The notes: generated by a model from the letters alone, not told the origin. A DNA stretch of 64,000 bases from an uncultured Faecalibacterium sp. (GCA_934548045.1 CAKTEM010000007.1:57105-121104); one strand, 5' to 3'; numbered from the stretch's first letter, positions 16,026-51,205 are shown. Program-made: numbers and translations.

Positions 16026-17111
16026 ATGGCCAATAGAGTATTTCAAAGCGTGATCTACCAGATGAAGGACGCGATCGACCGCGTAGTAGGTGTGGTGGAT
16101 GAAACCGGTGCCGTGATTTCCTGCTCGGAACTGAACCTGATCGGCGAAGTGCGCGAGGGCTTTATGGCAGAGCGTCTGACGGCAGGGGATCGTTTTGTGC
16201 GGGACGGTTACACCTATCAGCAGTTCTCCAGCGCAAAGCATAACGATTATGCTGTGTTCGTAGAGGGTGCAGACGAGACTGCCGGTCAGTTCGCAGCGGT
16301 GCTTTCCATCAGCCTGCAGAGTATCAAGCAGTATCATGACGAGAAGTTTGATAAATCCAACTTTATCAAAAACGTCGTGCTGGACAACATCCTGCCCGGC
16401 GATATCTATGCGAAGGCCCGTGAGCTGCACTTCGCGACCGATGTTTCCCGTGTTGTCTTCATCGTCCGTGTGACCAGCGGCGGCGACATCTCGGCTTACG
16501 ATGTCGTCAGCAGCCTGTTCCCGGACAAGCAGAAGGACTTCGTCTTCAACATCAGTGAGACGGACACCGTTCTGGTGAAGGAGATCCGCAAGGGCATCGA
16601 CCGCTCCGATATGGAAAAGCTGGCGGCCAGCATCGTGGACACCCTGTCCGGCGAACACTACATCAAGGCTGTTGTCGGCATCGGCACGCCCATCGCAAAC
16701 GTCAAGGATCTGGCGACCAGCTTCAAGGAAGCACAGATCGCAATGGAGGTCAGCAAGGTGTTCGACACCGAAAAGCAGATCATCCGTTACGACAACCTCG
16801 GCATCGCCCGTCTGATCTATCAGCTGCCGACCACCGTCTGCGAGATGTTCCTGCGCGAGGTCTTCAAGCAGGGCAGCATCGAGAGCCTGGATCAGGAGAC
16901 GCTGTTCACCATCCAGCGGTTCTTCGAGAACAACCTGAACGTCTCCGAGACCAGCCGCGGCCTGTTCGTCCACCGCAATACGCTGGTGTATCGTCTGGAA
17001 AAGATCAAAAAGCTTACCGGCCTGGATCTGCGTGAGTTCGATGATGCTATCGTCTTCAAGGTAGCATTGATGGTCAAGAAGTACCTGTCCAACAATCCGG
17101 CCAAATATTGA
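16026..17111 (+). CDS. PucR/CdaR-family transcriptional regulator
   Basis: C-terminal PucR-type HTH (TLFTIQRFFENNLNVSETSRGLFVHRNTLVYRLEKIKKLTGLDL); start MANRVF with RBS aagaggaaaagggg. Confidence 0.65.
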   Translation: MANRVFQSVIYQMKDAIDRVVGVVDETGAVISCSELNLIGEVREGFMAERLTAGDRFVRDGYTYQQFSSAKHNDYAVFVEGADETAGQFAAVLSISLQSIKQYHDEKFDKSNFIKNVVLDNILPGDIYAKARELHFATDVSRVVFIVRVTSGGDISAYDVVSSLFPDKQKDFVFNISETDTVLVKEIRKGIDRSDMEKLAASIVDTLSGEHYIKAVVGIGTPIANVKDLATSFKEAQIAMEVSKVFDTEKQIIRYDNLGIARLIYQLPTTVCEMFLREVFKQGSIESLDQETLFTIQRFFENNLNVSETSRGLFVHRNTLVYRLEKIKKLTGLDLREFDDAIVFKVALMVKKYLSNNPAKY

Positions 17112-35982: not shown

Positions 35983-36113
35983 GAAAAATCATACGCTGGA
36001 AAGCGAAAGAAAATCCGGGAAACCGCTTCTCAAATGAGTTCGGATTTGGTATACTATACACGTTTGTAAGAAAGTTGATGGTGGAGTATTGTCCATCGGA
36101 GTGGAGAATCGAA

Positions 36114-38537
36114 ATGCAGTTGGATAAGGAAAAGGAACTCAAGCAGGAGCAGGAACGCTGCCGTGTGCTGGCCCGGCAGGTCGCCCGGGAGCTGGCACCC
36201 AAGACGGTCAGGCTGATGGGAGAAAACAAGCTTCTGGAAGAGGCTCTGAAAGAGGAAAAGTTCGTGTTTGCGGCAGAGAAGGAGACGCCGGAACTTTTCA
36301 TCGTCGTGGAGCCGGAAGCCGCAGAGCTGCCGCTGTTTGAGAACGCAAAGGTGTTGCTGTATGGCACCCACGCGGAGGATGTGGCCTCCTGCGCCAAAAA
36401 GCTGGCGGAACAGGGGATCTATCGCAATTTCCGCTGGAAGTGGCATGACCGCGCGATGGCGAGCGCATTGTTCTGCGCGCAGGCAGAGGCACCCGAGGCG
36501 GTGGAGATGGTGAACGGTTACGAGCAGGAGTGTGCTTACCTGCACGACCAGACCCTTCGTGCGGAACGGGTCAGCACTGAGACGGTGGCGACCATCGAGC
36601 GTCTGCGCAGCGACCTTGCCCTCAGCCGCAATCACGAGCAGCAGCTGGAAACGACCCTGAACAATGTCACCAACTCGACCTTCTGGAAGATGACATGGCC
36701 GATGCGGTACATCGTCAGCAAGAGCCGCCAGATCTGGCACACCTTCCCCTTGTTCGTCTTCTTCAAGACCCTGCACCAGATCGGCATCTCCGGCGTCATG
36801 GAGCAGGCAAAGGCACGCCGGGAGTATGGCAAGCTCTTCCCGGGAAAGGTCATGTCGGCCGACCGGTTCGCAACGCCGGAACTGCTGGTGAAACAGGCTG
36901 GAAACCAGCCCAATGGCCCGAAGATCAGCATCGTGGTGCCGCTTTACAACACGCCGCAGAACTTCCTTGAGGAGCTGCTGGATTCCGTCCAGAACCAGAC
37001 CTACCGCAACTGGGAACTCTGCATGGTGGATGCCGGTCAGGATGAGAACGTTGCGCGCATCGTCAAGGCACGCGCCCGGACGGACAGCCGCATCCGTTAC
37101 CAGAAGCTGGCCGAGAACGAGGGCATCGCTGGCAACACCAACCACGGCTTCGAGATGGTGCAGGGCGATTACATCGCTCTGCTCGACCACGACGACATCC
37201 TGCATCCCTGCGCACTCTGGTATGTGGCACAGGCTGTCGCCGAGCAGGGCGCGGACTTTGTCTACACCGACGAGGTGACCTTTGAGGGCGATATCGACCA
37301 CCTGACGGTCTACCACTTCAAGCCGGACTATATGCTGGACAACCTCCGCTCTAACAACTACATCTGCCACCTGAGCGTCTTCAAGACCAGCCTGCTGGCA
37401 AAGGTCGGCGGCGGTGAGCGTGCCGAGTACAACGGCAGTCAGGATTACGACCTCTACCTCCGCCTGACCGAACAGGCCGAGAAGGTCGTCCACATTCCGC
37501 ACCTGCTCTACTACTGGCGTTCCAGCCCCACCAGCGTGGCAAGCAACATCTCGGCCAAGCTGTACTGTCTGGAAGCGGCGGTCAAGGCCCTGTATGCCCA
37601 CTATGAGCGCGTCGGCGTGCCGGTGGATGCGGTCACCATGATCCCCAACACCCCGGGCTTCTACAAGACCGATTACACCATCACCAAGCCCGGCCGGGTG
37701 AGCATCCTCATCCCGACCTGCGACCACATCGACGACCTTGAGACCTGCATCGAGTCCATCTATGACCGGACGACCTATCCGGATTTTGAGGTCATCCTCA
37801 TCGAGAACAACAGCAAGGATCCCGAGACCTTCCGCACCTATGAGCGGATGCGGAAAGAGCATCCGGACAACCTCAAGGTCATTATCTGGGAGGGCAAGGG
37901 CTTCAATTACAGCGCGCTGAACAACTTCGGCGAGAAGTATGCCACCGGCGAATACATCCTCCTGCTCAACAACGACACCGAGGTCATCACCCCGAAGTGG
38001 CTGGAAGAGATGGTCATGTACGCCCAGCAGGAGCGCGTCGGCTGTGTCGGCGTCAAGCTGCTCTATCCGGATGACACCATCCAGCACGCAGGCATCGGCT
38101 TTGGTTTCCTGACGCTGGCCGGCCACATGCACAAGAACTTCCCGGCAGGCCACCCCGGTTATATGGGCCGTCTGGTCTATGCACAGGACGTCTACGCCGT
38201 CACTGCAGCCTGCCTGATGGTACGCAAGGATGTTTACGAGCAGGTGGGCGGCCTCGACGAGAGCTTTGCCGTCGCCTTCAACGATGTGGATTTCTGTGTC
38301 CGTGTCCGTGAGGCTGGTTACACCAACATCTTCACCCCGTTCGCGCAGCTCTACCACTACGAGAGCAAGAGCCGTGGTCTGGACGAAAGCCCCGAAAAGC
38401 GGAAGCGTTTCGTCTCCGAGGTGGAGCGGTTCCAGAAACGCTGGAAAGCACAGCTGGAAGCAGGCGACCCCTGCATGAACCCGAACTTCGACCTGATGAA
38501 GGAGGACTTTACCTTCGACATCAAGCCGCTGGAATAA
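36114..38537 (+). CDS. Two-domain family-2 glycosyltransferase with N-terminal coiled-coil region (rhamnosyl/glycosyl polymerase-like)
   Basis: Two consecutive GT2 modules (ISIVVPLYNT...DHDD and VSILIPTCDH...NNDT...QHAG) after a roughly 240-aa coiled-coil/helical N-terminus; preferred start MQLDKEK (RBS ggaga), alternative 36075/36078. Confidence 0.7.
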   Translation: MQLDKEKELKQEQERCRVLARQVARELAPKTVRLMGENKLLEEALKEEKFVFAAEKETPELFIVVEPEAAELPLFENAKVLLYGTHAEDVASCAKKLAEQGIYRNFRWKWHDRAMASALFCAQAEAPEAVEMVNGYEQECAYLHDQTLRAERVSTETVATIERLRSDLALSRNHEQQLETTLNNVTNSTFWKMTWPMRYIVSKSRQIWHTFPLFVFFKTLHQIGISGVMEQAKARREYGKLFPGKVMSADRFATPELLVKQAGNQPNGPKISIVVPLYNTPQNFLEELLDSVQNQTYRNWELCMVDAGQDENVARIVKARARTDSRIRYQKLAENEGIAGNTNHGFEMVQGDYIALLDHDDILHPCALWYVAQAVAEQGADFVYTDEVTFEGDIDHLTVYHFKPDYMLDNLRSNNYICHLSVFKTSLLAKVGGGERAEYNGSQDYDLYLRLTEQAEKVVHIPHLLYYWRSSPTSVASNISAKLYCLEAAVKALYAHYERVGVPVDAVTMIPNTPGFYKTDYTITKPGRVSILIPTCDHIDDLETCIESIYDRTTYPDFEVILIENNSKDPETFRTYERMRKEHPDNLKVIIWEGKGFNYSALNNFGEKYATGEYILLLNNDTEVITPKWLEEMVMYAQQERVGCVGVKLLYPDDTIQHAGIGFGFLTLAGHMHKNFPAGHPGYMGRLVYAQDVYAVTAACLMVRKDVYEQVGGLDESFAVAFNDVDFCVRVREAGYTNIFTPFAQLYHYESKSRGLDESPEKRKRFVSEVERFQKRWKAQLEAGDPCMNPNFDLMKEDFTFDIKPLE

Positions 38538-38568
38538 GCGAACTGATTCAACGAAAAGAGGTACACCC

Positions 38569-39360
38569 GTGGAGTTATCCGCATGTATCGTGACTTATAA
38601 CTGCTGCGAGGAGGCCGTCCGCGCGGCGCAGACGATTTTGCAATACACCCGGCGGCATCCGCTGACCCTCTATCTGGTGGACAATGCCAGCCCGGACGGG
38701 AGCGGCGTGCAGCTGAAAAAGGCCGTGGAGAATGGCACGCTGACCTGTGCCGAGAACCAGCAGGTAAAAGTCATCTGCCGGGAGACGAACGGCGGCTTTG
38801 GCACCGGACACAACACCGTCCTGCCGATGCTGACGAGCGATTATCATTTCATCCTGAACCCGGATATCCAGCTGACGGTGGACACCCTCAGTGACCTTGC
38901 CGACTGGATGGCACAGCACCCGGACGTGGTGATGGCCCGGCCAAACCTGAGATTCCCGGATGGACGGGAGCAGCGGCTTCCGCTCCGGCGGTGCAGTCTC
39001 CGCCCGATGGTCTACCGGCAGCTGTCCTTCCTGAAATTCCTCGAGAAGTATAACGAACAGTATCTCATGGCCGACAAAGACCTGTCGCATCCGACCGAGA
39101 TCGAGTTCTGTACCGGCAGCTTCTCGGCGGTGCGGACGAAGGAGTTCAAGGCCGTGGGCGGCTTCGATGAGCATTACTTCATGTACGTCGAGGACGCCGA
39201 CCTGACCCAGAAGATGCGCACCACCGGCAAGGCGTATCTCGTGCCGCAGTTCACCGCCATCCACGCATGGCACCGGGCGGCGCACCGCAGCCTGAGACCG
39301 GCCCTCTGGCAGACCGGCAGCCTGCTCCGCTATTTCGCGAAGTGGGGCTTCAAATTCTGA
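38569..39360 (+). CDS. Family-2 glycosyltransferase (WbbL-like rhamnosyltransferase candidate)
   Basis: GT2 N-terminus LSACIVTYNC, DxD-like YVEDAD; GTG start; adjacent to rml genes. Confidence 0.65.
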   Translation: MELSACIVTYNCCEEAVRAAQTILQYTRRHPLTLYLVDNASPDGSGVQLKKAVENGTLTCAENQQVKVICRETNGGFGTGHNTVLPMLTSDYHFILNPDIQLTVDTLSDLADWMAQHPDVVMARPNLRFPDGREQRLPLRRCSLRPMVYRQLSFLKFLEKYNEQYLMADKDLSHPTEIEFCTGSFSAVRTKEFKAVGGFDEHYFMYVEDADLTQKMRTTGKAYLVPQFTAIHAWHRAAHRSLRPALWQTGSLLRYFAKWGFKF

Positions 39361-39608
39361 TATCCAAACGGCTTTTGCAGAAAATTTTCTGTAAAGGCCG
39401 TTCTTTTCTTGCTTTTTTGTGATTTTGATAGTAAAATAAAGTGTAAAACTATCTCATCATGCCCGGATAAGGACGATCGCGAGACGTTTTCCCTAACTAT
39501 GTTGACAGCGGACGCAGCTCCGCTTTGAATCCATACGAAGTTTGGAAAACTGAACTTCGTAAAGCTGCACAACTTTTTTTTCATAATCAATTAAAGGAGT
39601 GCGCAAAA

Positions 39609-40496
39609 ATGAAAGGTATTATTCTGGCCGGCGGTGCCGGCACCCGGCTCTATCCGTTGACGATGGTCACCAGCAAACAGCTGCTGCCCGTCTACGATAA
39701 GCCCATGATCTACTATCCTCTGTCTACCCTTATGCTGGCAGGCATCCAGGATATCCTGATCATCTCGACCCCGACCGATACGCCTCGTTTCGAGGCTCTG
39801 CTGGGCGATGGCAGCCAGTACGGCATCCATCTCCAGTATAAAGTTCAGCCCTCTCCGGACGGCCTGGCACAGGCGTTCATTCTGGGCGAAGAGTTCATCG
39901 GCGACGACTGCTGCGCCATGATCCTGGGCGACAACATCTTCTACGGCAACGGCTTCTCCAAGATCCTGAAGACCGCCGCTTCCAACGCAGAGAACAAGGG
40001 CCGCTGCACCGTCTTCGGCTACTATGTCTCTGACCCGGAGCGTTTCGGCATCGTCGAGTTCGACAAGGACGGCAAGGTGCTGAGCGTCGAGGAAAAGCCC
40101 CAGAACCCGAAGTCCAACTACGCCATCACTGGCCTGTACTTCTACAACAAGGAAGTCGTCCAGATGGCAAAGCAGGTCAAACCCTCCGCCCGTGGTGAGC
40201 TGGAGATCACGACCCTGAACGATATGTACCTCAAGAAGGACGAGCTGGATGTTCAGCTGCTGGGCCGCGGCTTTGCATGGCTGGATACCGGAACGATGGA
40301 CAGCCTCGTTGAGGCAGCTGACTTCGTCCAGATGATCGAGAAGCGTCAGGGCATCAAGATCAGCGCACCGGAGGAGATCGCCTTCAAGTACGGCTGGATC
40401 GACCGTGACACCCTGCTCGAGAGTGCGGCTCGCTACGGCAAGAGCCCCTATGGTCAGCACCTGAAGAACGTTGCTGACGGCAAACTGAAATACTAA
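39609..40496 (+). CDS. rmlA: Glucose-1-phosphate thymidylyltransferase
   Basis: [18 protein letters not shown] hallmark; 296 aa; RBS aaaggagtg. Confidence 0.9.
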
Positions 40497-40512
40497 TCGA
40501 AAGAGGCATCCT

Positions 40513-41427
40513 ATGAAAATCATTGTTACAGGCTGCAAGGGTCAGCTGGGTACCGAGATCATCAAGCAGCTGCGCGAGGGCAAGAGCGAGATCGGCACGA
40601 TCCCCGAAAAGCTGCTGAACGCGACCGTCATCCCGGTAGACCTGCCCGAGCTGGATATTTCCAACTATAAGATGGTGGACGAGTTCATCCGCCGTCAGCG
40701 TCCGGATGTCATCATCAACTGCGCTGCGTTCACCAACGTGGACGGCTGCGAGGTCAACCACGACGCCGCTTTCAAGGCAAACGCCCTCGGCCCTCGCAAC
40801 CTTGCACAGGCTGCAGAAAAGACCGGCGCACGTCTGGTGCATGTCTCGACCGACTACGTCTTCTCCGGCCGCGAGAACGGCGGCGTCGCACAGGACGAGG
40901 CCACCATTCCCGGCCCCATCAGTGCCTACGGTTCCACCAAGCTGATGGGCGAGAAGTACGTCGAGCAGTTCTGCCACCGTCACTTCATCATCCGCACCGC
41001 ATGGCTGTACAGCTACTATGGCAAGAACTTCGTCAAGACCATCGTCAACGCTGGCCGCAAGTTCGGCAAGCTGGAAGTCGTCAACGACCAGTGCGGCAAC
41101 CCGACCAACGCGGTCGATCTGGCACACGAAATTCTCCAGCTCTGCGTGACCCACGAATACGGCCTGTATCACTGCACCGGCGAGGGCATCTGCTCCTGGT
41201 ATGATTTCGCATCCGAGATCATCCGTCTGTCCGGCGTGGATGCAACGGTTGCTCCCTGCACCAGCGAGGAGTACAAGACCAAGCACCCGGAGAGCGCAGA
41301 CCGCCCGAAGTGGAGCGCACTGGACAACCGGATGCTTCGCTGCACCGTCGGCAACGATGTCCGCCCCTGGCAGGACGCCCTCAAGTGCTTCTTTGAGCAT
41401 TGGGATGGCGACAATGGAATGAAATAA
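40513..41427 (+). CDS. rmlD: dTDP-4-dehydrorhamnose reductase
   Basis: MKIIVTGCKGQLG Rossmann N-terminus, SxxxK with YGSTK, 304 aa. Confidence 0.85.
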   Translation: MKIIVTGCKGQLGTEIIKQLREGKSEIGTIPEKLLNATVIPVDLPELDISNYKMVDEFIRRQRPDVIINCAAFTNVDGCEVNHDAAFKANALGPRNLAQAAEKTGARLVHVSTDYVFSGRENGGVAQDEATIPGPISAYGSTKLMGEKYVEQFCHRHFIIRTAWLYSYYGKNFVKTIVNAGRKFGKLEVVNDQCGNPTNAVDLAHEILQLCVTHEYGLYHCTGEGICSWYDFASEIIRLSGVDATVAPCTSEEYKTKHPESADRPKWSALDNRMLRCTVGNDVRPWQDALKCFFEHWDGDNGMK

Positions 41428-41527
41428 CCCTCTCAGACGCTTCGCGCCAGCTCCCCCAGAGGGGGAGCCTTTGGCATGTCGGTTCACATCTGCGCCATAC
41501 GGCAGAGCGTGGGCCTTGCGTGTGAGG
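41428..41527. repeat. Truncated copy (left portion) of CCCTCTCAG-TIR element (copy D)
   Basis: Begins immediately after the rmlD TAA: ccctctcagacgcttcgcgccagctcccccagagggggagcc...gggccttgcg. Confidence 0.55.
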
Positions 41528-41560
41528 AAAACAAGATATACAATTGAGGATAAATAAAAG

Positions 41561-42625
41561 ATGAAAACTTATCTTATTACTGGCTGCGCCGGCTTTATCG
41601 GCTCCAACTTTGTCCACTATATGCTGAAAAAGTACCCCGAGATCCTGCTCGTCAACCTCGACAAGCTGACCTATGCAGGCAACCTCGAGAACCTGAAGGA
41701 CGTCGAGGGCGACCCTCGCCATGTCTTCGTTCAGGGCGACATCTGCGACAAGGAACTGGTCGAGGGCCTGTTCGCAAAGTATGATTTCGATTATGTCATC
41801 AACTTTGCTGCTGAGAGCCACGTTGACCGCTCCATCAAGAACCCCGAGATCTTCGTCCAGAGCAATGTCATGGGTACCGTGAACCTGCTCCAGCGCGCCA
41901 AGGAAGCCTGGTACGACGCAGACGCAAAGACTTGGAAAGAGGGCAAGAAGTACGTTCAGGTCTCGACCGATGAGGTCTACGGCGCACTGGGTGCCGAGGG
42001 CTACTTCATGGAGACCACTCCGCTCTGCCCCCACAGCCCCTACTCTTCCTCCAAGGCAAGCGCAGATATGTTCGTTATGGCGTTCCACGATACCTACGGT
42101 ATGCCCATCAACATCACTCGCTGCTCCAACAACTACGGCCCCTATCAGTTCCCTGAGAAGCTGATCCCCCTGATGATCAACAATGTCAAGCACCACAAGC
42201 AGCTGCCTGTCTACGGTGACGGTATGCAGATCCGCGACTGGCTGTATGTTGAGGATCACTGCAAGGCCATCGACATGGTCACCAACGGCGGCAAGATCGG
42301 CGAAGTCTACAACGTCGGCGGTCACAACGAGCGTCCGAACATCTTCATCGTCAAGACCATCATCAGCCAGCTGCATGACCGTCTGCAGGATGAGGGCATC
42401 AGCGAAGATCTTATCAAGCACGTCGCTGACCGTCTGGGCCACGACCGCCGCTACGGCATCGACCCCACCAAGATCAAGAACGATCTGGGCTGGTATCCCG
42501 AGACTCCGTTCGAAAAGGGCATTGTCCTGACCATCGACTGGTACCTCAACCACGAGGAGTGGATGGAGCATATCACCAGCGGCAACTACCAGAAATACTA
42601 TGAGGAAATGTACAAGAATAAGTAA
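41561..42625 (+). CDS. rmlB: dTDP-glucose 4,6-dehydratase
   Basis: ITGCAGFIGSNFV, YSSSKASAD (YxxxK), 354 aa. Confidence 0.9.
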   Translation: MKTYLITGCAGFIGSNFVHYMLKKYPEILLVNLDKLTYAGNLENLKDVEGDPRHVFVQGDICDKELVEGLFAKYDFDYVINFAAESHVDRSIKNPEIFVQSNVMGTVNLLQRAKEAWYDADAKTWKEGKKYVQVSTDEVYGALGAEGYFMETTPLCPHSPYSSSKASADMFVMAFHDTYGMPINITRCSNNYGPYQFPEKLIPLMINNVKHHKQLPVYGDGMQIRDWLYVEDHCKAIDMVTNGGKIGEVYNVGGHNERPNIFIVKTIISQLHDRLQDEGISEDLIKHVADRLGHDRRYGIDPTKIKNDLGWYPETPFEKGIVLTIDWYLNHEEWMEHITSGNYQKYYEEMYKNK

Positions 42626-42723
42626 TCGTTCCTGAACATTCCGATACGATAAAAACCAGCTCCTGCTTGGGCTATCCCGGCAGGAGCTGGTTTTGTTATT
42701 GATTCAGATAGATTGGGGAAAGG

Positions 42724-43557
42724 TCAGGACAGAGCCTGAGCTGCGATGATCACATAAGAATCATAATGGCTGGGTTCACGCGCAGCGGTGACCTCGAAGG
42801 AAGAGATTGCACCGGCTTTTAGCTGACTGATATAAGTGCTTTCGCCTGCCAGCAATTTGTCTCCTACCCGGTAGAAAATACGAATCGTGACATTCAAACT
42901 TCTGGAGCTTGTGTTTTCAATTTCGCCGGTAAAAGTTGTAAAAGGATTGTCATAAGGACTGCCATCATGACGGGAAGTGTTAGAAATCTTCAGTGCAGAT
43001 TGTTTTGGATAAGTAGGTTTTTCCATGCAATAACTGGGGTAACTGACTTTATAGCTGAGCGTTGAAGGAACACCGTTATCAACAATGATTTCTCCACCAA
43101 ATGTAATGGTATCGCCGGGTGCAACAGGAGGAATAAAGGATTGACTGGTACGAAGAACAGCACCGCTTGTGCTTTTTACGGTAAAGTTGAGGTTAGCATA
43201 GTTGAAAGACTTATAACGATTCGTATTTGTAACGATAAAAGTGTAGAAGACATGGTAATGCCCATTGCTGTCTATCGTGGAATAATAATCATAACTGTCA
43301 ATTCGCAGCTTTGTTGCAGTGCTTTCAGCGGTGGTCGAATCACTGGATGAGCTTGGAGAGCTGGAATTATTGGAAGACGAGTTATTCTCAGAAGAAGAAG
43401 CAGAGTTTGCCGTCGAGCTGGAATTGCTGGTAGATGAGCCATTAGACGGCGTGGAAGAGCTTGGGAGGGAAGAGGATGCCGGAGAGTCAGAACAGCCCGT
43501 GAAAACAGCGCAAGCCATTGCAGCCGCTAACACGGCTGCCGCAATCTTTTTTCGCAT
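42724..43557 (-). CDS. Lipoprotein with Ser-rich low-complexity linker and C-terminal beta-rich domain
   Basis: Signal plus lipobox MRKKIAAAVLAAAMACAVFTGC; about 70-aa S/N/T-rich linker; RBS aaggagg; lower GC than flanks. Confidence 0.65.
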   Translation of the reverse strand: MRKKIAAAVLAAAMACAVFTGCSDSPASSSLPSSSTPSNGSSTSNSSSTANSASSSENNSSSNNSSSPSSSSDSTTAESTATKLRIDSYDYYSTIDSNGHYHVFYTFIVTNTNRYKSFNYANLNFTVKSTSGAVLRTSQSFIPPVAPGDTITFGGEIIVDNGVPSTLSYKVSYPSYCMEKPTYPKQSALKISNTSRHDGSPYDNPFTTFTGEIENTSSRSLNVTIRIFYRVGDKLLAGESTYISQLKAGAISSFEVTAAREPSHYDSYVIIAAQALS

Positions 43558-43805
43558 GAAAAGTACCTCCTTGTATTTGCTGAAAAACAACAGAAAACTT
43601 ACCATTAACTTCATTATAGCAGAGTAGAAATAATAGCTCAAGAATGAAAAAATAGCAGAGATAACAAAAATCATATCGAAATTTAATGCAGGATAACAAA
43701 AAGGAGCCGCTGTCTCAGCACAGAGGTCTTTTTTTGTTGTGCGGTGGGCGGTGGTTTCTGGCGGCGAAGTGCTTTCTTCAGGTTGCCCTCTGGGGTGAAG
43801 TTATC

Positions 43806-43976
43806 TGATAAAGTTGCACTTTATTTTCGCTGATACGTTTAAAAAGCATCTTTATCAGGGTGATAAACTTCGGATATGCTGATAAAGTTGGAACTTTATC
43901 AAACAGAGCAACTTTTGCAAACTGATAAAGTTCAATATTTAAACATAGCTAAGTAATTATTCTCGAACTTTATCAC
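43806..43976. repeat. Array of 10-bp TGATAAAGTT motifs in direct and inverted orientation (iteron/operator-like)
   Basis: Direct copies at 43806, 43880 and 43923; inverted AACTTTATCA at 43891 and 43967; palindromic variant ctttatcagggtgataaactt at 43851-43871. Confidence 0.6.
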
Positions 43977-44010
43977 ATGATTCTCCACAGTACAGATACG
44001 AATACCACCG

Positions 44011-44181
44011 ATGGCAAACTTTTTCTACATCTGCGAGTATCTTCATATCACGCCGAAGGAGTTCTTCGAGGATGGCAACACCGACCCGGAAGCTCTCCGG
44101 GCGATGGTCGAAAACCTGAAAAAGCTCGATAAGGAACAGGTGGATGCCCTCTCACAAATCGTGGATGGGCTGGTAAAGTAA
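44011..44181 (+). pseudogene. 5'-truncated XRE-family HTH gene remnant
   Basis: 56-aa ORF MANFFYICEYLHITPKEFFEDGNTD... corresponds only to the C-terminal helix and tail of XRE/Cro-type regulators; no RBS; DNA-recognition helices absent. Confidence 0.45.
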
Positions 44182-44262
44182 GAAAAAGCTTTTAGTTTCG
44201 AGAGATTTAGAAACAGAAGCTTTTACAAATCGGGAATGACAACCGGATGAAGAAAATAAAAC

Positions 44263-44291
44263 ATTGACAATATCGGTTTAATCCGATAAAA
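44263..44291 (+). promoter_or_regulatory. Sigma-70-type promoter of the toxin-antitoxin operon with operator palindrome in spacer
   Basis: TTGACA, 17 nt, TAAAAT; spacer contains the inverted repeat atcggtttaatccgat. Confidence 0.5.
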
Positions 44292-44323
44292 TAGAGATAG
44301 GAAAATGTGCGGCGGAGGATAAA

Positions 44324-44683
44324 ATGCGAGAGTACGATGTTGACTTCTTCATAAAGGAAAACGGAGACTGCCCGGTTCGGGAGTTTTTGGCATCCCTTGA
44401 TAAAAAGATGAGGGCGAAACTTTTGATGGACATCGACCTGCTGGAAGAAAACGGCCCACTGCTGAGAGAACCGTATTCAAAACATTTGGACGATGGGATT
44501 TTTGAGATTCGAGCGAAACAGGGAAGTGACATCACAAGAGTTCTGTATTTCTTCTTTGTTGGCAAGAAAATCATCCTCACAAATGGCTTTACCAAAAAGA
44601 CACAGAAAACACCGCAGTCGGAAATAGCGACAGCAAAGAAATACCGTGCAGAGTATTTAGAGCGAAAGGAGAAGATCTCATGA
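44324..44683 (+). CDS. Type II toxin, RelE/ParE superfamily (HigB/Gp49-like, DUF891 type)
   Basis: 119 aa; family-typical motifs FEIR...RVLYFF and GKKIILTNGFTKKTQKTP; encoded upstream of and overlapping a small HTH gene. Confidence 0.7.
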   Translation: MREYDVDFFIKENGDCPVREFLASLDKKMRAKLLMDIDLLEENGPLLREPYSKHLDDGIFEIRAKQGSDITRVLYFFFVGKKIILTNGFTKKTQKTPQSEIATAKKYRAEYLERKEKIS

Positions 44684-44970
44684 GCGATTTCAGAAAATAC
44701 CTTGAAGAACAGCTGGAAGACCCCGAATTCAAGGCGGAGTGGGATGCTTTGCAGCCGGAGCGTGCGCTTGTGCAGGCGATGATCGACGCACGGAAGCGGA
44801 CGGGAATGACCCAGAAACAGCTGGCAGAGAAGACGGGAATCTCTCAGTCGGATATCAGCAAGTTTGAGACTGGCGGAGGAAATCCGTCCATTAAGACGTT
44901 GCAGAGACTGGCCGCTGGAATGGGAATGGTTTTGCAGGTGGAGTTCAAACCGGCAACAGGCACCCGATAA
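44680..44970 (+). CDS. XRE-family HTH antitoxin (HigA-like)
   Basis: 96 aa; HTH MTQKQLAEKTGISQSDISKFETG; 4-bp overlap with the toxin gene. Confidence 0.7.
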   Translation: MSDFRKYLEEQLEDPEFKAEWDALQPERALVQAMIDARKRTGMTQKQLAEKTGISQSDISKFETGGGNPSIKTLQRLAAGMGMVLQVEFKPATGTR

Positions 44971-44996
44971 GACAAATTCTGTAATTAAATAAGCGC

Positions 44997-45030
44997 AAAA
45001 AGGCCGCTGCGGAGATGCAGCGGCCTTTAA
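44997..45030. terminator. Bidirectional intrinsic terminator between higA-like gene and pfkA
   Basis: ggccgctgc ggagat gcagcggcc 9-bp stem, flanked by A-run and T-run. Confidence 0.55.
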
Positions 45031-45065
45031 TGGTTTCAGAAAACCTTATTTCTAAGAGATATTCT

Positions 45066-46145
45066 TTAGCCCAGGCTGACACCCATGCGACGGGCGGCGG
45101 TGAGCAGCTCGCAGTTTTCGGGAACGTTCCGGGTCTTGCCGGCGATGTCGTCGAGGCGGTTCTGGGTGACGCGGCCGTTCACCATGGCGACGGTCACGCC
45201 GTAACGCTCGATCTCGACCAGCTTTGCGGCGTAGGTGCCGAACTCGGTCGCCAAAACACGGTCGTATGCGCTGGGGCTGCCGCCGCGCTGCATGTGACCC
45301 GGGATGCAGACACGGGTCTCCATGCCGGTCTTCTTCTGGATGGCGGCAGCGATGCGGTTGGTGGCGGTGACGCCGTAACCGGCCTCGGCACGCTTTGCCA
45401 TCCACTCCTTGCGCTTCATCTTGGCCTCCTCGACGTTGTATGCGCCCTCAGCGACGGCGAGGATGGAGAAGTTGGAACCCTTCTTTGCGCGGCGTTCTAC
45501 GGCCTCGCAGACATGGTCGATGTCATAGGGCATCTCGGGCAGCAGGATGATGTCTGCGCCGCCTGCAATGCCTGCGTAGAGGGTCAGCCAGCCGGCCTTG
45601 TTGCCCATCAGCTCGATGCACATCACGCGGCTGTGGCTGCCTGCGGTGGTGTGGATGCGGTCGATGACGTCGGTCGCGATGTCAACGGCGGTATGGAAGC
45701 CGAAGGTCACATCGGTGCCGTAGATATCGTTGTCGATGGTCTTGGGCAGGCCGATGATGTTCAGGCCCTCCTGCGAGAGCAGGTTTGCGGTCTTGTGGGT
45801 GCCGTTGCCGCCCAGACAGAGCAGACAGTCGAGCTTGGCGTCCTTGTAGGTCTTCTTCATGGCGGCAACTTTGTCGATCTTGTCCTCTTCGACCACGCGC
45901 ATCATCTTGAACGGGGTGCGCTTTGTGCCGAGGATCGTGCCGCCCAGAGTCAGGATGCCACGGAAATCGTCCTCGGTCATCTCCTTGTACTCGCCGGTGA
46001 TGAGGCCATGGTAGCCGTTCAGGATGCCGACGATCTCCACATTGTCGCCCATACGGGCATACAGTGCCTTTGCCACGCCGCGGATGGTCGCGTTCAGACC
46101 CGGGCAGTCGCCGCCGGAAGTCAGGATGCCAACACGTTTTTTCAT
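45066..46145 (-). CDS. pfkA: 6-phosphofructokinase
   Basis: GILTSGGDCPGLNA, GGNGT, PKTIDNDI, MGR-like motifs; start MKKRVGIL with RBS gaggga. Confidence 0.85.
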   Translation of the reverse strand: MKKRVGILTSGGDCPGLNATIRGVAKALYARMGDNVEIVGILNGYHGLITGEYKEMTEDDFRGILTLGGTILGTKRTPFKMMRVVEEDKIDKVAAMKKTYKDAKLDCLLCLGGNGTHKTANLLSQEGLNIIGLPKTIDNDIYGTDVTFGFHTAVDIATDVIDRIHTTAGSHSRVMCIELMGNKAGWLTLYAGIAGGADIILLPEMPYDIDHVCEAVERRAKKGSNFSILAVAEGAYNVEEAKMKRKEWMAKRAEAGYGVTATNRIAAAIQKKTGMETRVCIPGHMQRGGSPSAYDRVLATEFGTYAAKLVEIERYGVTVAMVNGRVTQNRLDDIAGKTRNVPENCELLTAARRMGVSLG

Positions 46146-46333
46146 CTTAAAATCCCTCATTTCCTAAGATTCCCCGCACAAAGCGAGTGTTTCAGATACT
46201 ATTAGAGTATTCCCAAAGCAGGCAGGTGTCAAGAGTGAGAAGCAAAAAAGAACGTCCGGATGCAGAAGGTTTTGTCCGGATGACAGGAAAAATACCGCCC
46301 GAAAAAATCAGACAAAAAATTTTGAAAAAAGTG

Positions 46334-46362
46334 TTGACAATCGGTGCTAAGGGTAGTATAAT
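46334..46362 (+). promoter_or_regulatory. Consensus sigma-70 promoter for tRNA operon
   Basis: TTGACA (46334-46339), 17-nt spacer, TATAAT (46357-46362), about 55 nt upstream of tRNA-Gln. Confidence 0.6.
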
Positions 46363-46418
46363 ATCCCCTGTCAGCAGCGAACGACAAACAAACGAAAGCT
46401 CCTGACGAACCAAAATAT

Positions 46419-46492
46419 TGGGGATTTGCATAGTGGTAGTGCGGTAGACTCTGACTCTACTTGTGGGAGTTCGATTCTCTCATCCCCAACCA
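46419..46492 (+). tRNA. tRNA-Gln (anticodon CUG), CCA encoded
   Basis: Manual fold: acceptor TGGGGAT/ATCCCCA, D-arm GCAT/GTGC, anticodon stem GTAGA/TCTAC with loop CTCTGAC (U33, CTG, A37), T-arm GGGAG-TTCGATT-CTCTC, discriminator A, CCA. Confidence 0.8.
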
Positions 46493-46520
46493 GACCGCAG
46501 CCGAAAAGCTGCGGTATTTT

Positions 46521-46596
<76 letters not shown>

Positions 46597-46597
46597 A

Positions 46598-46637
46598 AAA
46601 GAACCAGTACACATTTGTGTGCTGGTTCTTTTTTACG
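46598..46637 (+). terminator. Intrinsic terminator after tRNA-Pro
   Basis: gaaccagtacacatttgtgtgctggttc hairpin followed by TTTTTT. Confidence 0.6.
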
Positions 46638-46800
46638 TTCCAATAAAGACGGTAGAGTGTCATTTAGTCCAAGACCTTACGGAACGTCTGCCGGGGTGAC
46701 TGCCGCTAGGTGTGTTGCGTACAAACGCATTTATTTGACATTTCGACGAACGGATTTTGAAAAGTTCCAAAAATCTTCCCAAAATGATTCCAGACAAAAA

Positions 46801-46853
46801 ACGACCCTGCCCGGCTTGTGCATAGAGGAACACGAGCCGGGCAGGGCTTTTTT
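46801..46853. terminator. Bidirectional intrinsic terminator (3' of ABC permease gene on minus strand)
   Basis: ccctgcccggc ... gccgggcaggg 11-bp stem with T-runs on both strands. Confidence 0.6.
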
Positions 46854-46999
46854 GCGGTATTTGGTTTGGTGTAGGAGGAATCATGTCCAAGAAGGTGGTT
46901 TGCGGCCTCACTTTCTTGTGGCTCTAAGATACCAGAGAAATGATACGGGATTATGCCTTTTTGATGAAGGATTTATGAATTTGCCGAACCTTTGCCGGG

Positions 47000-49900
47000 T
47001 CATTCAGGGGCCTTCATGCTTTCGACCATGCTGATCCGCTTGACGTGGCGGCGCATGATGAGGCAGACGGCGAAGTTGAAGACCATCGTCAGGGCAACGC
47101 TGATGAGGTAGCTGCGCGGAGCGATGGAGCGGATGAACATCATACGGTCCATCTCGATGGTGCGGACGATGAACTGATGGAGCGGTATGCCCAGCCCCAG
47201 ACCGACCAGCGAACCGATGAAAGCCAGCAGGTCGATCTCCCGGAAGATATACCGGTAGACCTCTTTGTCGTAGAAACCGAGGACTTTGATGGTCGCCAGC
47301 TCCTTTTTGCGCTCGGCAAGGTTGACCGAGATGAGATTGTACAGGACGACGGCGGCCAGCGCACCGGCACAGATGATGACAAGGCCAACGACGTAGTTCA
47401 GGCAGCTGATGAGGTTGGAGAGCATCCCGGTGGTGTCGGCGGTAAAGGTCACGCTGGAAATGTAGTTGCAGGCCAGCAGCTTGGCGCGGAGGGCGTCGGT
47501 GTCATCCGTCGTCTCGCAGGAGGTCTGGCCGAAGACGGTGTTCCATTCCAGCGGCGCGGAGCCGAGGTAGGCGTCGAAGTTCTCCTGCGACAGGTAGAGC
47601 CGGGCGTAGATGTAGTTCTCGGTGATGCCGGTCAGGGTCAGCTCCAGCCGTCCGCCGGACGGAGTGTCCACCCAGAAGTGGTCGCCGACTGACAGACCCA
47701 GCTGCGTTGCGGTCTTCTCGGTCAGGATGGCACTGTCAGAGCCAAATGCGATGGCGTGGTGGCCTTTCCGGGTGCGGAAGGTGTTGTACTTCGTCATGAG
47801 GCTGTCGTCCTCCGCAGCGACCAGAGAGACGGTCTCGGCGGTGTTGTCGGCGTTGTAGACCGAGACGGACTTGGTGTAGAACTTGCCCCAGCTCTTGACC
47901 TCGCTGCTGGAATCCAGCACATCGGCAAGGCCGTTCTCGGTGGTGAGGGCCTTCTCGCTGCTCAGGGAGATGGTGAGGTCGTTGTGGGTCAATTCGGCAG
48001 ACTGTTTATCCACGATGGGGAGCAGGGCATCCTGAATACCAAAACCAATCAACAGCAGAGCCGTGCAGCCTGCCACGCCCAGAACGGTCATGAAGAAGCG
48101 TTTCTTGTACCGGAAGAGGTTCCGGGCGGTGGTCTTCTGGGAGAAGGACATGTGCTTCCAGAGCGGCGTGATGTACTCGAGCAGGATGCGCTTGCCGGCC
48201 ACCGGAGCGCGCGGCAGGAGCAGGGAAGCGGTCTTCTCGTGCAGGGAGGAACGGCAGGCGAGAAGGGTCGTCAGGCCGATGACCGCCGAGCTGATGAGCA
48301 GGCTTGCCGCCGCCATGCCGGGATAGAAAGTCAGCTGGAAGGTGGGAACATCGAAGATCATCCCGAAGGCGTTCCAGATGATGATGGGAAAGACCGTGAA
48401 GCCCACTGCCATGCCGGCAAAACTGCCGAGGATGCTGGCGGAAAGGGCATAGAAGAGGTACTTTGCGGCGATCTGGCCGTTGGAGTAGCCCAGAGCCTTG
48501 AGCGTACCCATCTGCAGGCGGTTCTCGTCCACCATACGGGTCATGGTGGTGGACGCCACCAGAGCCGCCACGAGGAAGAAGAACACCGGGAAGACTCGGG
48601 CGATAGCAGTCATGCGGTCGGTGTACTGCTCAAAGGTGACAAAGCTCATGGTGCTGGTGCGGTCGAGGACGTACCACTCGCCGTTCTGGATGTCCGAAAT
48701 TTGCTCCTCGGCATCCGTGATCTGCTTCTGGCCGTCGGCAAGCTGCTGCTCGGCGTCGGTTTTCTGGGTCTCGTACTCGGCACGGGAGTCGGCGAGCTGC
48801 TGGACGCCGGAGTTGTACTCTTCCCAGCCGGAATCAAGCTTCGTCCGGGCATCCTCGAGCTGCTGCTGTGCGGCGGCAAAGGCAGAGTAAGCCGTCGCCG
48901 TGCCGGTGTTCATCGAGAGCTGACCCTGCATCAGGGCGAGCTTCATCTTCCGCAGAGCGGCCTTTGCCTCGGTCACAAGGGATTCGTTGGAGAGGGTAGG
49001 CGAGGAGATAAGGCCCTGCGCGTACATCTGCTGTTTGCCGGCGTCGAGCTGCTGCTGGTAGCCGTCCAGCTGGTTCTTGATGCTGTCGTATCCCTCCTGT
49101 GCTTTGGCGAGAGCATCCCGAAGCTCGACGTAATCCTCGTCCTCGGGTTCGGCTTCGTCGAGGGCTTTCTGGGCGTTGTCCAGCGCGGTCTGCGCATAGC
49201 CGAGAAGGGGCTGAGCGACCTTCTGAACGTTGACGAGAAGCTCGATCTGCTGGAGTTGGTCTTCAAACTCCAACACCTGTTCCTGACTGGTGAGGAGTTG
49301 GTCGGCACCGCTCTGCATGGTATCGGGGAGAGCGGCCTGCTGCTGGGCAAGCTGCTCCTTGCCGGAGGTGTACTCGGCTTCGCCCTGCTCCAGCTGGGCT
49401 TTGGCGGCGTCCAGCTGGGCCTGCGCCTCGTCGAGCTGACGTTCCGCGTCGGCGAACTGGGCTTCTGCCTCGGCCTTTTTGTCGTTGTAGGTCTGCTTGG
49501 CCTCGTCCAGCTTGGCGTTGGCGGTGTCGATAAGCTGCGCCCGGCGTGTCTCACACTGGGCGTCGCTGATGGCGGTCAGCCGGTCGGCCACGGCATCCAC
49601 GGCCTGCTGGTATTCGTCTGAGAAATTGTCATACTGGTCGGCATTTTCGGCCTTGATATAACAAACTGTGTAGTAATCGGCCGTCAAATCCCCGTCCGGA
49701 ACGAACAGGATGACGTCCAGCGTGCCGTCACCGGCGGTGGTGGACTCGGCATCGGTGGAGAAGTGGATGGGGTCCTGCACGTTTCCGACGACGGTATATT
49801 TCTTGCATTTTAAACCGTCGGTATCGTCCGGAACGGTCAAAGTCGTACCCAGCTCGATGGCGTCGGCGTATCCGAGGACATGGACGACACATTCATCGTC

Positions 49901-50320
49901 GGCCTCGGGCATCCGGCCATTCCGGAGGATGAGCTGATTCATGTTGTCCTCGGTGTCGGCGTCCGGGTCGGCAGGAAGCTGCTGGATGCGGACGACGGCC
50001 GGTTCATCGCTGTTCGACCACTGGGCCGTGGTGTCCAGATATTTTACGGGCTGGACAGCCTCGACGCCCTCGGTGGAGCGGATGGCGGAGATGTCGTCTT
50101 CCGACAGACCCAGCGTGGACAGAACCCGGATGTCGAAGACGTTCTGCTGGATATAGTATTTCTGGGCGGCGGTGCGCATACTGGGCGCGATGCTGACAAG
50201 GCCGGTGAGCATCATGACGCCCAGCAGCACGATGCCGAACAGGGAGACGACCCGGCTCATGCTGCCTTTCATTTCCCGGAGGATATTTTTACGATAACTT
50301 TTCCGCACTGTAATCACCAC
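47000..50320 (-). CDS. ABC transporter permease, FtsX/MacB-type with duplicated FtsX domains and long extracytoplasmic coiled-coil
   Basis: 1106 aa; TM1 then a roughly 470-aa external region containing a roughly 270-aa Q/A/E/L-rich coiled coil, 3 TM, a second large loop, C-terminal 3-4 TM FtsX domain; overlaps the downstream ATPase gene. Confidence 0.75.
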   Translation of the reverse strand: MVITVRKSYRKNILREMKGSMSRVVSLFGIVLLGVMMLTGLVSIAPSMRTAAQKYYIQQNVFDIRVLSTLGLSEDDISAIRSTEGVEAVQPVKYLDTTAQWSNSDEPAVVRIQQLPADPDADTEDNMNQLILRNGRMPEADDECVVHVLGYADAIELGTTLTVPDDTDGLKCKKYTVVGNVQDPIHFSTDAESTTAGDGTLDVILFVPDGDLTADYYTVCYIKAENADQYDNFSDEYQQAVDAVADRLTAISDAQCETRRAQLIDTANAKLDEAKQTYNDKKAEAEAQFADAERQLDEAQAQLDAAKAQLEQGEAEYTSGKEQLAQQQAALPDTMQSGADQLLTSQEQVLEFEDQLQQIELLVNVQKVAQPLLGYAQTALDNAQKALDEAEPEDEDYVELRDALAKAQEGYDSIKNQLDGYQQQLDAGKQQMYAQGLISSPTLSNESLVTEAKAALRKMKLALMQGQLSMNTGTATAYSAFAAAQQQLEDARTKLDSGWEEYNSGVQQLADSRAEYETQKTDAEQQLADGQKQITDAEEQISDIQNGEWYVLDRTSTMSFVTFEQYTDRMTAIARVFPVFFFLVAALVASTTMTRMVDENRLQMGTLKALGYSNGQIAAKYLFYALSASILGSFAGMAVGFTVFPIIIWNAFGMIFDVPTFQLTFYPGMAAASLLISSAVIGLTTLLACRSSLHEKTASLLLPRAPVAGKRILLEYITPLWKHMSFSQKTTARNLFRYKKRFFMTVLGVAGCTALLLIGFGIQDALLPIVDKQSAELTHNDLTISLSSEKALTTENGLADVLDSSSEVKSWGKFYTKSVSVYNADNTAETVSLVAAEDDSLMTKYNTFRTRKGHHAIAFGSDSAILTEKTATQLGLSVGDHFWVDTPSGGRLELTLTGITENYIYARLYLSQENFDAYLGSAPLEWNTVFGQTSCETTDDTDALRAKLLACNYISSVTFTADTTGMLSNLISCLNYVVGLVIICAGALAAVVLYNLISVNLAERKKELATIKVLGFYDKEVYRYIFREIDLLAFIGSLVGLGLGIPLHQFIVRTIEMDRMMFIRSIAPRSYLISVALTMVFNFAVCLIMRRHVKRISMVESMKAPE

Positions 50321-51018
50321 TCGATCTGTTCCACGGGGATGGGATGGGCGTTGACCTGATTCGAGACGATCTGACCGCTCCGCACCTGAATGATGCGGTC
50401 AGCCATGCCGGTCAGGGCCGTGTTGTGGGTGATGACGATGACGGTGCGGCCCGTCTCCCGGCAGGTCTTCTGGAGCAGGGCCAGCACCTGTTTGCCGGTC
50501 TTGTAGTCCAGCGCACCGGTCGGCTCGTCGCAGAGCAGAAGCTTCGGGTTCTTGGCGAGGGCGCGTGCGATGGAGACGCGCTGCTGCTCGCCGCCGGACA
50601 GCTGGGCCGGGAAGTTGTTCAGCCGCTCGCCAAGGCCCACCTGACGCAGCGTCTCGGTCGGGTCGAGAGGGTCACGACAGATCTCGCTGGCAAGTTCGAC
50701 GTTCTCAAGGGCCGTGAGGTTCTGCACGAGGTTATAGAACTGGAACACGAAACCCACGTCGTACCGGCGGTAGGTCGTCAGCTCCCGTTCGGTGAAGTGG
50801 CTGACGTTCTGGCCGTCCAGCCAGACGTTTCCCTCGTCGCAGGTGTCCATGCCGCCAAGGATGTTCAGCAGGGTGGTCTTGCCTGCGCCGGATGGCCCGA
50901 CGATGATGCAGAACTCGCCCTTGTCGACGTAAAAGTTCAGATGGTCGGCTGCGGCGATCTTCACGCTGCCGGTCTGATAGTACTTGGAAACACCTTCAAA
51001 CTCAACAAAATGCTCCAT
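50314..51018 (-). CDS. ABC transporter ATP-binding protein (MacB/LolD-type)
   Basis: Walker [10 protein letters not shown], signature LSGGEQQR, Walker [13 protein letters not shown]; 234 aa. Confidence 0.85.
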
Positions 51019-51205
51019 AGTGTGCCTCCCTTAGATGATATTTTTCTATCTTCTATCATAGCATAATTTTGCGTGGGTGCGCCAGTGGGCAGAGGGCAAA
51101 TTTGCAAAATCTTAATAAGTGAACAACAAGAAAACGGAAGCCGTTTCCAGCTTCCGTTTTCTTGTCCAAGGGAAATTATTTGGGAAACGCTATCGTCGAG
51201 GGAAA

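Follow-up and report, generated by a model that had tools for sequence, protein, structure and literature searches.

We analysed a stretch of 64,000 nucleotides (hereafter the window) from an uncultured Faecalibacterium sp. (GCA_934548045.1, CAKTEM010000007.1:57105-121104), in which rmlB and pfkA are separated by a gap of 2.44 kb (rmlB stop at 42625, pfkA stop at 45066). The G+C (GC) content of the gap is 44.2%, as compared to 57.2% in the left flank, 61.7% in pfkA and 56.3% in the whole window. The gap contains a lipoprotein gene, an array of 10-bp inverted repeats, the 5'-truncated stump of an XRE-family gene and a toxin-antitoxin (TA) pair. A preliminary description of this DNA, made by reading the sequence, had reported a low-GC patch with these four features, and all of them are present (44% GC in the gap vs 57-62% in the flanks). 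The interesting part of the locus is the array; the TA pair, the lipoprotein cassette and the pseudogene are of an ordinary kind. Here we describe the array and argue that it is probably an orphan copy of an iteron-type replication origin, i.e. a copy that has lost the neighbouring gene for a putative replication protein (rep).

The repeat TGATAAAGTT occurs in five exact copies within 170 bp (starts at 43806(+), 43880(+), 43892(-), 43923(+) and 43966(-)); 0.08 copies are expected in the window, and no shuffle reached 6. The preliminary description had spoken of at least five exact copies in both orientations with palindromic variants. This is correct, but the repeats are not a loose set. They belong to a fixed layout of eight 10-bp sites in the order > < > > < < > <, with a start-to-start spacing of 42-13-19-12-18-13-43, and the whole is mirror-symmetric within 1 bp about position 43890.5. 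The parts of the array are the following.

43786..44010, - strand: array unit of about 225 bp; the absent rep gene would be encoded on the - strand and come in from the right
43806..43815, + strand: site 1, exact TGATAAAGTT; with the preceding GTTATC it forms TTATC-T-GATAA
43848..43857, - strand: site 2, TGATAAAGAT on the - strand, one mismatch
43861..43870, + strand: site 3, TGATAAACTT, one mismatch; this is the usual site-3 form in the A (ftsH-side) and E (rep-linked) array types
43880..43901, no strand: sites 4 and 5, perfect 22-bp palindrome TGATAAAGTTggAACTTTATCA, symmetry centre of the array
43910..43919, - strand: site 6, degenerate AACTTTTGCA, two mismatches
43923..43932, + strand: site 7, exact
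43933..43965, no strand: spacer of 33 bp with 76% A+T, on the rep side of the array
43966..43975, - strand: site 8, exact; in rep-linked copies it encodes ..DKV.. of the C-terminal tail of Rep

The left end of the unit carries the motif CCTCTGGGG..GTTATC. The right end is a relic of 3' codons of rep that includes a degenerate palindrome, TCTCCACAGTACAGA (43982-43996). Sites 2 and 6 are the degenerate ones when compared with the family consensus, and TGATAAAGTTggAACTTTATCA is unique in the window even at 3 mismatches. The outer spacers contain 66% and 76% A+T. In the 33-bp spacer at 43933-43965 the motif AACGTA..GTA and the AT-richness are kept across genomic contexts, and this spacer might be a DNA-unwinding region. 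We note that there is a sixth exact TGATAAAGTT, the only other copy in the 64 kb, which lies within the near-palindrome TTGATAAATCCAACTTTATCAA in a coding region (16349-16369) and is probably a chance occurrence.

In the literature the 10-mer, in either orientation, was found only in primers and unrelated sequences, and to our knowledge it fits none of the Fur, DnaA, LexA or IHF boxes. A literature search on Faecalibacterium with iterons found nothing, and one on inversion, repeats or prophages in Faecalibacterium found nothing relevant among the titles listed. Rfam gave only a sub-threshold chance match to a miRNA, so the array is not a known RNA.

When 185,579 species genomes were scanned, the central palindrome had 34 matches. 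Thirty-two of these are isolated palindromes in unrelated phyla and 2 are arrays, both found in Faecalibacterium metagenome-assembled genomes and both in unrelated neighbourhoods. The same palindrome gave one chance match in IMG/VR, on an AT-rich contig. A scan of metagenomes, with a pattern built to skip the window's own locus, was richer: at least about 115 true arrays with 7-8 sites are among the matches listed, on contigs of about 60% GC that are mostly labelled human gut. Clustering of the array flanks gave at least seven contexts, as follows.

ftsH side, with CmpB/hisS or with a Na-Pi transporter/MATE
PcrA/UvrD with OAD-beta
rmuC with an fprA-like gene
fabZ-side site
the window's own rmlB/pfkA site
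array abutting a 473-493-aa AAA_25 gene

It is apparent that the site order and spacing (42-13-19-12-18-13-42/43) are identical in 8/8 contexts. The unit is oriented and about 225 bp long, and its ends carry CTCTGAGAG..GGTTATC on the left and CTACnnCAGTAGAG on the right. Orphan arrays similar to that of the window lie at no fewer than four other chromosomal loci, i.e. gene-less copies, as judged from these contigs, persist at several core-genome sites in Faecalibacterium. The distance of arrays to contig ends was also tried as a sign of multiple copies and was discarded (15 arrays at <300 bp from an end vs 15.4 expected, i.e. no signal).

The last context in the list is the informative one. 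About 21 of the 115 metagenomic arrays (among the matches listed) abut the AAA_25 gene (PF13481, E 1.5e-26), whose product we call Rep, and the array begins inside the last codons of this gene. Rep ends in ..FLYCSRTNDKVPN; the last codons (..NDKVPN) lie in site 8, which encodes DKV. In all genes for homologues of Rep, an array of this architecture overlaps the stop codon and continues directly behind it, with different 10-mers. These are listed below, with the identity of each Rep relative to the L096 protein.

L194/L195: Rep about 73%, 10-mer TGATAAAGTG
L196: Rep about 74%, 10-mer TGAGAAAGTG
L190/L191 (viral): Rep 60-61%, 10-mer TGATACAGTG-like
L192 (viral): Rep 54%, 10-mers TGACCAAGTT / TGGCGAAGTT
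L193 (viral): Rep 59%, 10-mers mixed

In other words, five distinct 10-mer types go with Reps of 54-74% identity and the layout stays constant. Repeats immediately downstream of the rep open reading frame (ORF) are thus seen in the roughly 21 chromosomal copies and in 4 viral contigs. The gene content was examined for two of the latter, L190 and L192: each has an integrase, an XRE repressor, rep and the array, L190 also has a cro-like gene and L192 a head protein gene. An XRE repressor/cro pair lies just upstream of rep and the putative origin in the viral relatives.

Rep resembles the RepA helicase of plasmid RSF1010 in sequence (E 2e-3) and in fold (best match 1nlf, E 4e-5, followed by KaiC and DnaB), and it matches the helicase part of phage primase/helicase families. 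The family comprises 374 representative clusters at E <= 1e-30, and many relatives of 600-750 aa match through their C-terminal halves. Residues 390-462 form a helix-strand-helix-helix-strand-strand arrangement in the structure prediction (predicted local distance difference test, pLDDT, 76-88), which we take as a predicted winged-helix C-terminal domain. The ratio of nonsynonymous to synonymous substitution rates (dN/dS) of rep is 0.28-0.53. Truncated and chimeric forms of rep are also numerous (a complete F. prausnitzii genome has one with an internal deletion), so rep is not uniformly maintained. Among the Faecalibacterium variants (P0104, P0116, P0118, P0328-P0348) are truncated, internally deleted and fused forms (ABC_tran, PF07470), in which the retained part is 90-98% identical.

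Two further observations concern the surroundings of rep-linked arrays. A second repeat family of about 330 bp (70-85% identity) is found around the rep-linked array locus (L087 5094-5425, 2269-2601, 6494-6675 and 426-604; also L096 and L098), and it is absent from the window. Moreover, L194 carries a YafQ/MazE-type TA pair just upstream of the rep-linked array locus (3780-4309), i.e. another TA beside an array.

The arrangement recalls the replication origins of Staphylococcus aureus pathogenicity islands (SaPIs) and of phage-inducible chromosomal islands (PICIs). In SaPIs the C-terminal winged helix of Rep binds 6-12 iterons that are located immediately downstream of rep in opposite orientations (PMC9371898). 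Judged by architecture, the AAA_25 gene and its array would form an analogous rep-plus-iteron-origin module. Short repeats, 6-12 in number and of opposed orientations, follow immediately 3' of the rep ORF in both systems (PMC9371898), a C-terminal winged helix of Rep reads them in SaPIs and is predicted here, the specificity covaries between Rep and iteron, and the element has an integrase and an XRE repressor upstream. The array of the window fits the SaPI/PICI pattern in repeat count and orientation, i.e. 6-12 repeats with at least two per side opposed. There are also differences. The ATPase is of the RecA-fold AAA_25/RepA-like type, whereas that of SaPIs is a superfamily 3 (SF3) AAA+ protein, and the sites are 10 bp as opposed to 5-6 bp long. 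The centre is a 22-bp palindrome, with the A+T-rich stretches in the two outer spacers. The coding sequence of rep contains the first site, the window copy has no rep, and the present system is known from sequence alone.

RSF1010 (IncQ) provides the best sequence and fold match for the ATPase core, which belongs to the same Pfam family (PF13481). RSF1010 RepA is not known to have a domain for DNA recognition; its direct-repeat iterons are bound by RepC, a separate initiator. Here, in contrast, the ATPase carries a predicted winged-helix tail, and the orientation of the repeats is inverted. Iteron plasmid origins such as those of R6K, RK2 and pPS10 share with the array the clustering of (here putative) initiator-binding repeats by an A+T-rich stretch, but they have direct repeats of 17-22 bp and Rep_3-type winged-helix initiators without a helicase, and we found no plasmid DNA similar to the array. 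In iteron plasmids extra iteron copies titrate or "handcuff" the initiator.

The link between the window and the rep-linked arrays is seen at the DNA level: the array of L087 is 75% identical to the window over 209 bp (43802-44008; blastn, E 2e-31). There is no rep gene in the 64-kb window according to tblastn, and only a relic of about 35 nt of the 3' end remains. As no rep stands beside the array, we class the window copy as an orphan derivative and not as a working module. The array belongs to a putative origin family of RepA-like helicases of which we found no description, and we put the probability that it is an orphan copy of an iteron-type replication origin at about 75%.

By analogy with SaPIs and PICIs, the winged helix of Rep would read the 10-bp sites and Rep would assemble on the symmetric array. 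The DNA would open at one of the A+T-rich outer spacers of 32-33 bp, and the integrated element would then be replicated. In the window, a deletion or rearrangement may have fused the last 35 nt or so of rep (- strand) to codon 43 of a resident XRE gene (+ strand), which would have destroyed both genes. As the rep relic abuts the XRE stump at about 44010, it seems that one such event removed the 5' parts of two divergent genes. The window copy, in which two of the eight sites are degenerate, would not be able to fire alone. At most it might bind Rep in trans, if another locus of the genome had a rep-linked copy to provide it.

A number of points weigh against this interpretation. The rep relic is short and its match at the protein level is weak: residues 477-491 of Rep match 44010-43966, i.e. 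15 residues (tblastn, E 0.14). In the window the repeats do not follow a rep ORF. The term "origin" is inferred from the rep-array architecture and from analogy. The helicase is of the RecA-fold/AAA_25 type and not SF3 AAA+, and the centre of the array is a palindrome and not the A+T-rich region of SaPI origins. The structure prediction is confident for the C-terminal domain and parts of the core only, and the model as a whole is poor (mean pLDDT 58). The array DNA has no blastn match among sequenced phages or plasmids, so the plasmid or phage source that had been suggested for the patch found no support, and the sequenced phages contain only distant relatives of Rep (about 28% identity). The conservation data are to be read with care as well, since 20 of the 80 site columns of the metagenome set could not vary, being part of the search pattern. 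Within the window's own species the sites are no better kept than the spacers (variable columns 2/80 vs 3/90), which is too little variation to decide.

Conservation across the contexts is nevertheless uneven along the array. Between contexts the identity of the sites is 0.90-1.00, and that of the spacers is 0.48-0.69, except for 0.87 between the ftsH-side and the rep-linked arrays. Within contexts, the summed variable columns are 24/80 in sites vs 67/94 in spacers. A further tendency is seen at the ftsH side, where the orphan of another lineage carries TGATAAAGTG. This orphan is 84% identical to the TGATAAAGTG rep-linked array and only 66% identical to the same-position orphan of the TGATAAAGTT lineage, which in turn is 89% identical to its own rep-linked array. 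The common change of the orphan and rep-linked 10-mers points to concerted evolution or to repeated replacement. A more distant species, in which the flanking protein is 64% identical, has an empty gap of 156 bp at the ftsH-side position; it is the only empty site that was found.

In some contigs (A-I, B-E, D-E) the flank of one array is combined with the opposite flank of a different one, and the stretches homologous to the two parents overlap precisely over the array. The pattern resembles that of an inversion through recombination between copies. The contigs may also be short-read chimeras, because the ftsH-side and rep-linked arrays share identical stretches of about 75 bp.

Are the orphan arrays working chromosomal sites for the resident AAA_25 Rep, with a function in trans? 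The eight sites and the exact spacing are kept where the spacers diverge by up to half, and the 10-mer of the orphans changes in step with that of the rep-linked copy; both fit such a role, which we consider possible but doubtful. If the orphans do work, they could be secondary Rep-dependent origins that amplify neighbouring accessory genes, or decoys against incoming related satellites or phages, whose Rep they would titrate or "handcuff" (incompatibility or immunity), or favoured crossover points at which the chromosome is reshuffled and next to which accessory cassettes are loaded.

The proposed reading gives a concrete meaning to an otherwise anonymous repeat, in a genus that is among the most abundant in the human gut. 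The SaPI design of a self-loading helicase plus iterons would have a second structural counterpart in a rep-plus-origin module whose RepA-like (AAA_25) helicase is fused to a winged helix. Copies of this origin without the gene would remain at several positions of the core genome and change together with the gene-linked one. Should the orphan copies bind Rep, this would bear on satellite and prophage interference, on local gene amplification, and on the question of why certain intergenic gaps become hot spots for TA and surface-protein cassettes.

The other features of the gap are the following.

42695..43749, - strand: variable cassette, consisting of the lipoprotein gene and its promoter; a PDDEXK_2 gene in other strains
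44011..44181, + strand: XRE-family stump of 56 aa, i.e. the C-terminal 56 of about 98-107 codons; the helix-turn-helix (HTH) helices are gone
44264..44997, + strand: self-contained TA module with promoter, operator candidate, toxin and antitoxin
45002..45027, no strand: hairpin ggccgctgc/gcagcggcc, downstream of both pfkA and higA; presumed terminator

Over its 56 residues the XRE stump is 77-80% identical to the C-terminal part of HTH_19/HTH_3 proteins of 98 aa. The missing first 42 residues (the HTH) have no counterpart upstream in the window in any frame, and no Shine-Dalgarno sequence was found upstream of the stump. A 2-bp frameshift occurs in L007/L017, and the alleles vary at a non-coding rate (9/171 columns), so that on the evidence of its alleles the stump is probably a pseudogene. 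The full-length homologues and the frameshift allele bear out what had been noticed from the sequence, namely a 5'-truncated XRE gene without recognition helices. The many "56-aa" XRE clusters were considered as a sign of recurrent truncation and rejected as gene-calling artefacts, because the gene of L026 is intact (107 aa), with a GTG start that was missed by the gene callers. In sister species (L026 3127-5677; L025 830-2931), the intact XRE gene is followed by a convergent gene for a 195-aa AAA_18/zeta-toxin-like kinase. It is preceded by small genes of unassigned function, i.e. there is a different accessory set at the same hot spot downstream of rmlB.

In the TA module the toxin comes first (44324-44683; Gp49, PF05973, E 2e-28), and it shares a 4-bp ATGA overlap (44680-44683) with the antitoxin (44680-44970; HTH_3, E 3e-14). 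The promoter TTGACA-17-TAAAAT at 44264-44292 has 11/12 consensus matches. Between its -35 and -10 hexamers lies an imperfect palindrome, TATCGGTTT/AATCCGATA (44271-44288), through which this HigB/HigA-like pair, to judge from its layout, is probably auto-repressed; TATCGGTTTAATCCGATA is a candidate HigA target sequence. The gene order, the 4-bp overlap, the PF05973 and HTH_3 domains and the palindrome within the promoter are all as in type II TA systems of the HigB/HigA type. The intact Gp49/HigB-like pair with its own promoter and operator palindrome was thus described correctly, with the reservation that the name HigB is a family-level label only, because the TIGR02683 equivalog match is below the cut-off (23 vs 63 bits). 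A truncated toxin of 85 aa (P0287, P0291) is found on at least 24 contigs including an NCBI record, i.e. some strains carry a shortened toxin.

The lipoprotein gene (42724-43557, - strand) encodes a signal peptide with the lipobox VFTGC, an S/T/N-rich linker at residues 22-84 (S+T+N amount to 66% over residues 23-95) and a C-terminal FxLYD domain (NF038353, E 3.5e-6), so the Ser-rich lipoprotein with a linker stands as first described. A promoter scan placed its -35/-10 at 43641-43613. The protein has no similarity to the lipoprotein beside the rep-linked arrays. In some strains a gene for a 277-aa PDDEXK_2 protein (PF12784; Rpn-like nuclease/"transposase") is found in its place.

The variability of the gap was studied on sister contigs that were picked because they encode exactly the HigB, PfkA or RmlB protein of the window. 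The 24 loci fall into four structures.

Allele A (window, L001, L002, L019): lipoprotein, array, XRE stump, TA
Allele B (L003): PDDEXK_2 gene replaces the lipoprotein, remainder as in allele A
Allele C (L016, L021): PDDEXK_2 gene and a 296-aa lipoprotein allele, without array, stump and TA
Allele D (L023): PDDEXK_2 gene, 296-aa lipoprotein and TA, without array and stump

Homology of the window to allele B ends at 42694 and restarts at 43750, i.e. the swap covers 42695-43749. The block absent from allele C is 43702-44997 (array, stump and TA). It is flanked by CAAAAAGG(AG)CCGCTG repeats: the 5' edge of the hairpin, CAAAAAGGCCGCTG, repeats CAAAAAGGAGCCGCTG (43698-43713), and these short direct repeats bracket the block that is missing from L021. 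In allele D the TA module starts precisely at the -35 hexamer (44264). The four alleles agree with the view of the patch as accessory. Since its occupants are separate modules (a swapped cassette; a TA pair with its own promoter), the gap, as far as these alleles tell, is a recombination hot spot that collects accessory modules. We note that the slot adjoining the left end of the array holds alternative cassettes even where the rmlB or pfkA proteins are identical (window 42695-43749; L003 8481-9314; L021 8169-9059). The 277-aa and 296-aa lipoproteins have an identical signal peptide and linker start and an overall identity of only 47%, which suggests a diversifying surface protein.

With these data other explanations of the array can be weighed. 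The preliminary description had regarded the whole 2.3-kb patch as the eroded remnant of one integrated element (a plasmid, an integrative and conjugative element or a phage) held by the TA pair, so that array, stump and TA would have arrived together. Such an origin would suit the low GC throughout, the XRE repressor/cro pair just upstream of the rep-linked arrays in viral relatives, and the loss of array, stump and TA as a unit between short direct repeats in L016 and L021. It does not agree with allele D, where the TA is found without array or stump and is joined exactly at the -35 hexamer of its promoter. Nor does it agree with the sister species (rmlB 96% identical), which keeps an intact XRE gene just downstream of rmlB, in a 48%-GC patch that lacks the array and the TA. 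The XRE stump is not similar to the cro-like protein of the viral contig L190, and the locus has no integrase or att site. The empty site that was to be sought in sister strains was not found in any of the 24 contigs; every gap is filled, 2.2-3.0 kb long and of 44-46% GC. Because the lipoprotein/PDDEXK_2 cassette, the array with the stump, and the TA come and go independently in the four alleles, the patch does not look like one eroded element, and the account of a joint arrival appears unlikely to us.

The preliminary description had also left open whether the repeats are iterons or an operator for a lost regulator. The position of the array directly upstream of the XRE stump, the inverted repeats and the dyad-centre spacings close to whole helical turns would fit a multi-site operator, be it for the truncated XRE protein or for the neighbouring HigA antitoxin. 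But TGATAAAGTT is absent, within one mismatch, from the loci of the intact XRE homologues (L025-L034), the 115 or more listed arrays elsewhere have no XRE or TA neighbour, and the TA pair, which is also found where the array is absent, has a different palindrome of its own. In short, the operator half of the claim finds no support and is highly improbable, and the iteron half is the better one in view of the AAA_25-linked homologues and the covarying 10-mers. A different possibility is that the array is a non-autonomous mobile unit of about 225 bp, comparable to miniature inverted-repeat transposable elements (MITEs) or repetitive extragenic palindromic (REP) sequences, whose likeness to the rep-linked array reflects its source only. 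Orphans are indeed present in at least five unrelated core-gene neighbourhoods (ftsH side, uvrD/OAD-beta, rmuC/fprA-like, fabZ side, rmlB/pfkA), most copies have the like ends given above, these ends supply the C-terminal codons and the stop codon of a neighbouring gene in two cases, and the more distant species has its empty site between the same two genes. Like REP sequences and bacterial interspersed mosaic elements, enterobacterial repetitive intergenic consensus sequences and Correia-type MITEs, the array is a short unit of imperfect dyad symmetry with copies between, or in the 3' ends of, unrelated core genes, where it may act as a recombination junction. In contrast to them it keeps only the eight 10-mers and their spacing, with spacers that diverge by up to about 50%, has a low copy number and has a clear protein-linked parent copy. 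No terminal inverted repeats were seen beyond the sites themselves, in the flank alignments we noticed no target-site duplications, though without a formal search for them, and no transposase was present in the neighbourhoods examined. Moreover, the length of the rep relic varies between loci, being longer at the C flank, and the apparent ends could equally mark the limit of selective constraint. Taken together, a mobile unit is an improbable explanation, and the orphan origin copy is the one that we prefer.

A few observations concern the wider surroundings of the gap. The cumulative GC skew (profile of 36000-52000) has its minimum at about 42450-42600, at the left edge of the patch, where + strand genes (rml operon) and - strand genes (pfkA, ABC transporter) meet. 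The coding strand is rich in C both to the left and to the right, so the switch goes with gene orientation and not necessarily with replication. Beyond pfkA, a further low-GC stretch (46050-47000) contains tRNA-Gln(CTG) and tRNA-Pro(CGG) at 46419-46596. A second variable spot is found between pfkA and the ABC-transporter gene, where L007/L017 carry an extra 1.3 kb or so with ORFs of 177 aa and 39 aa.

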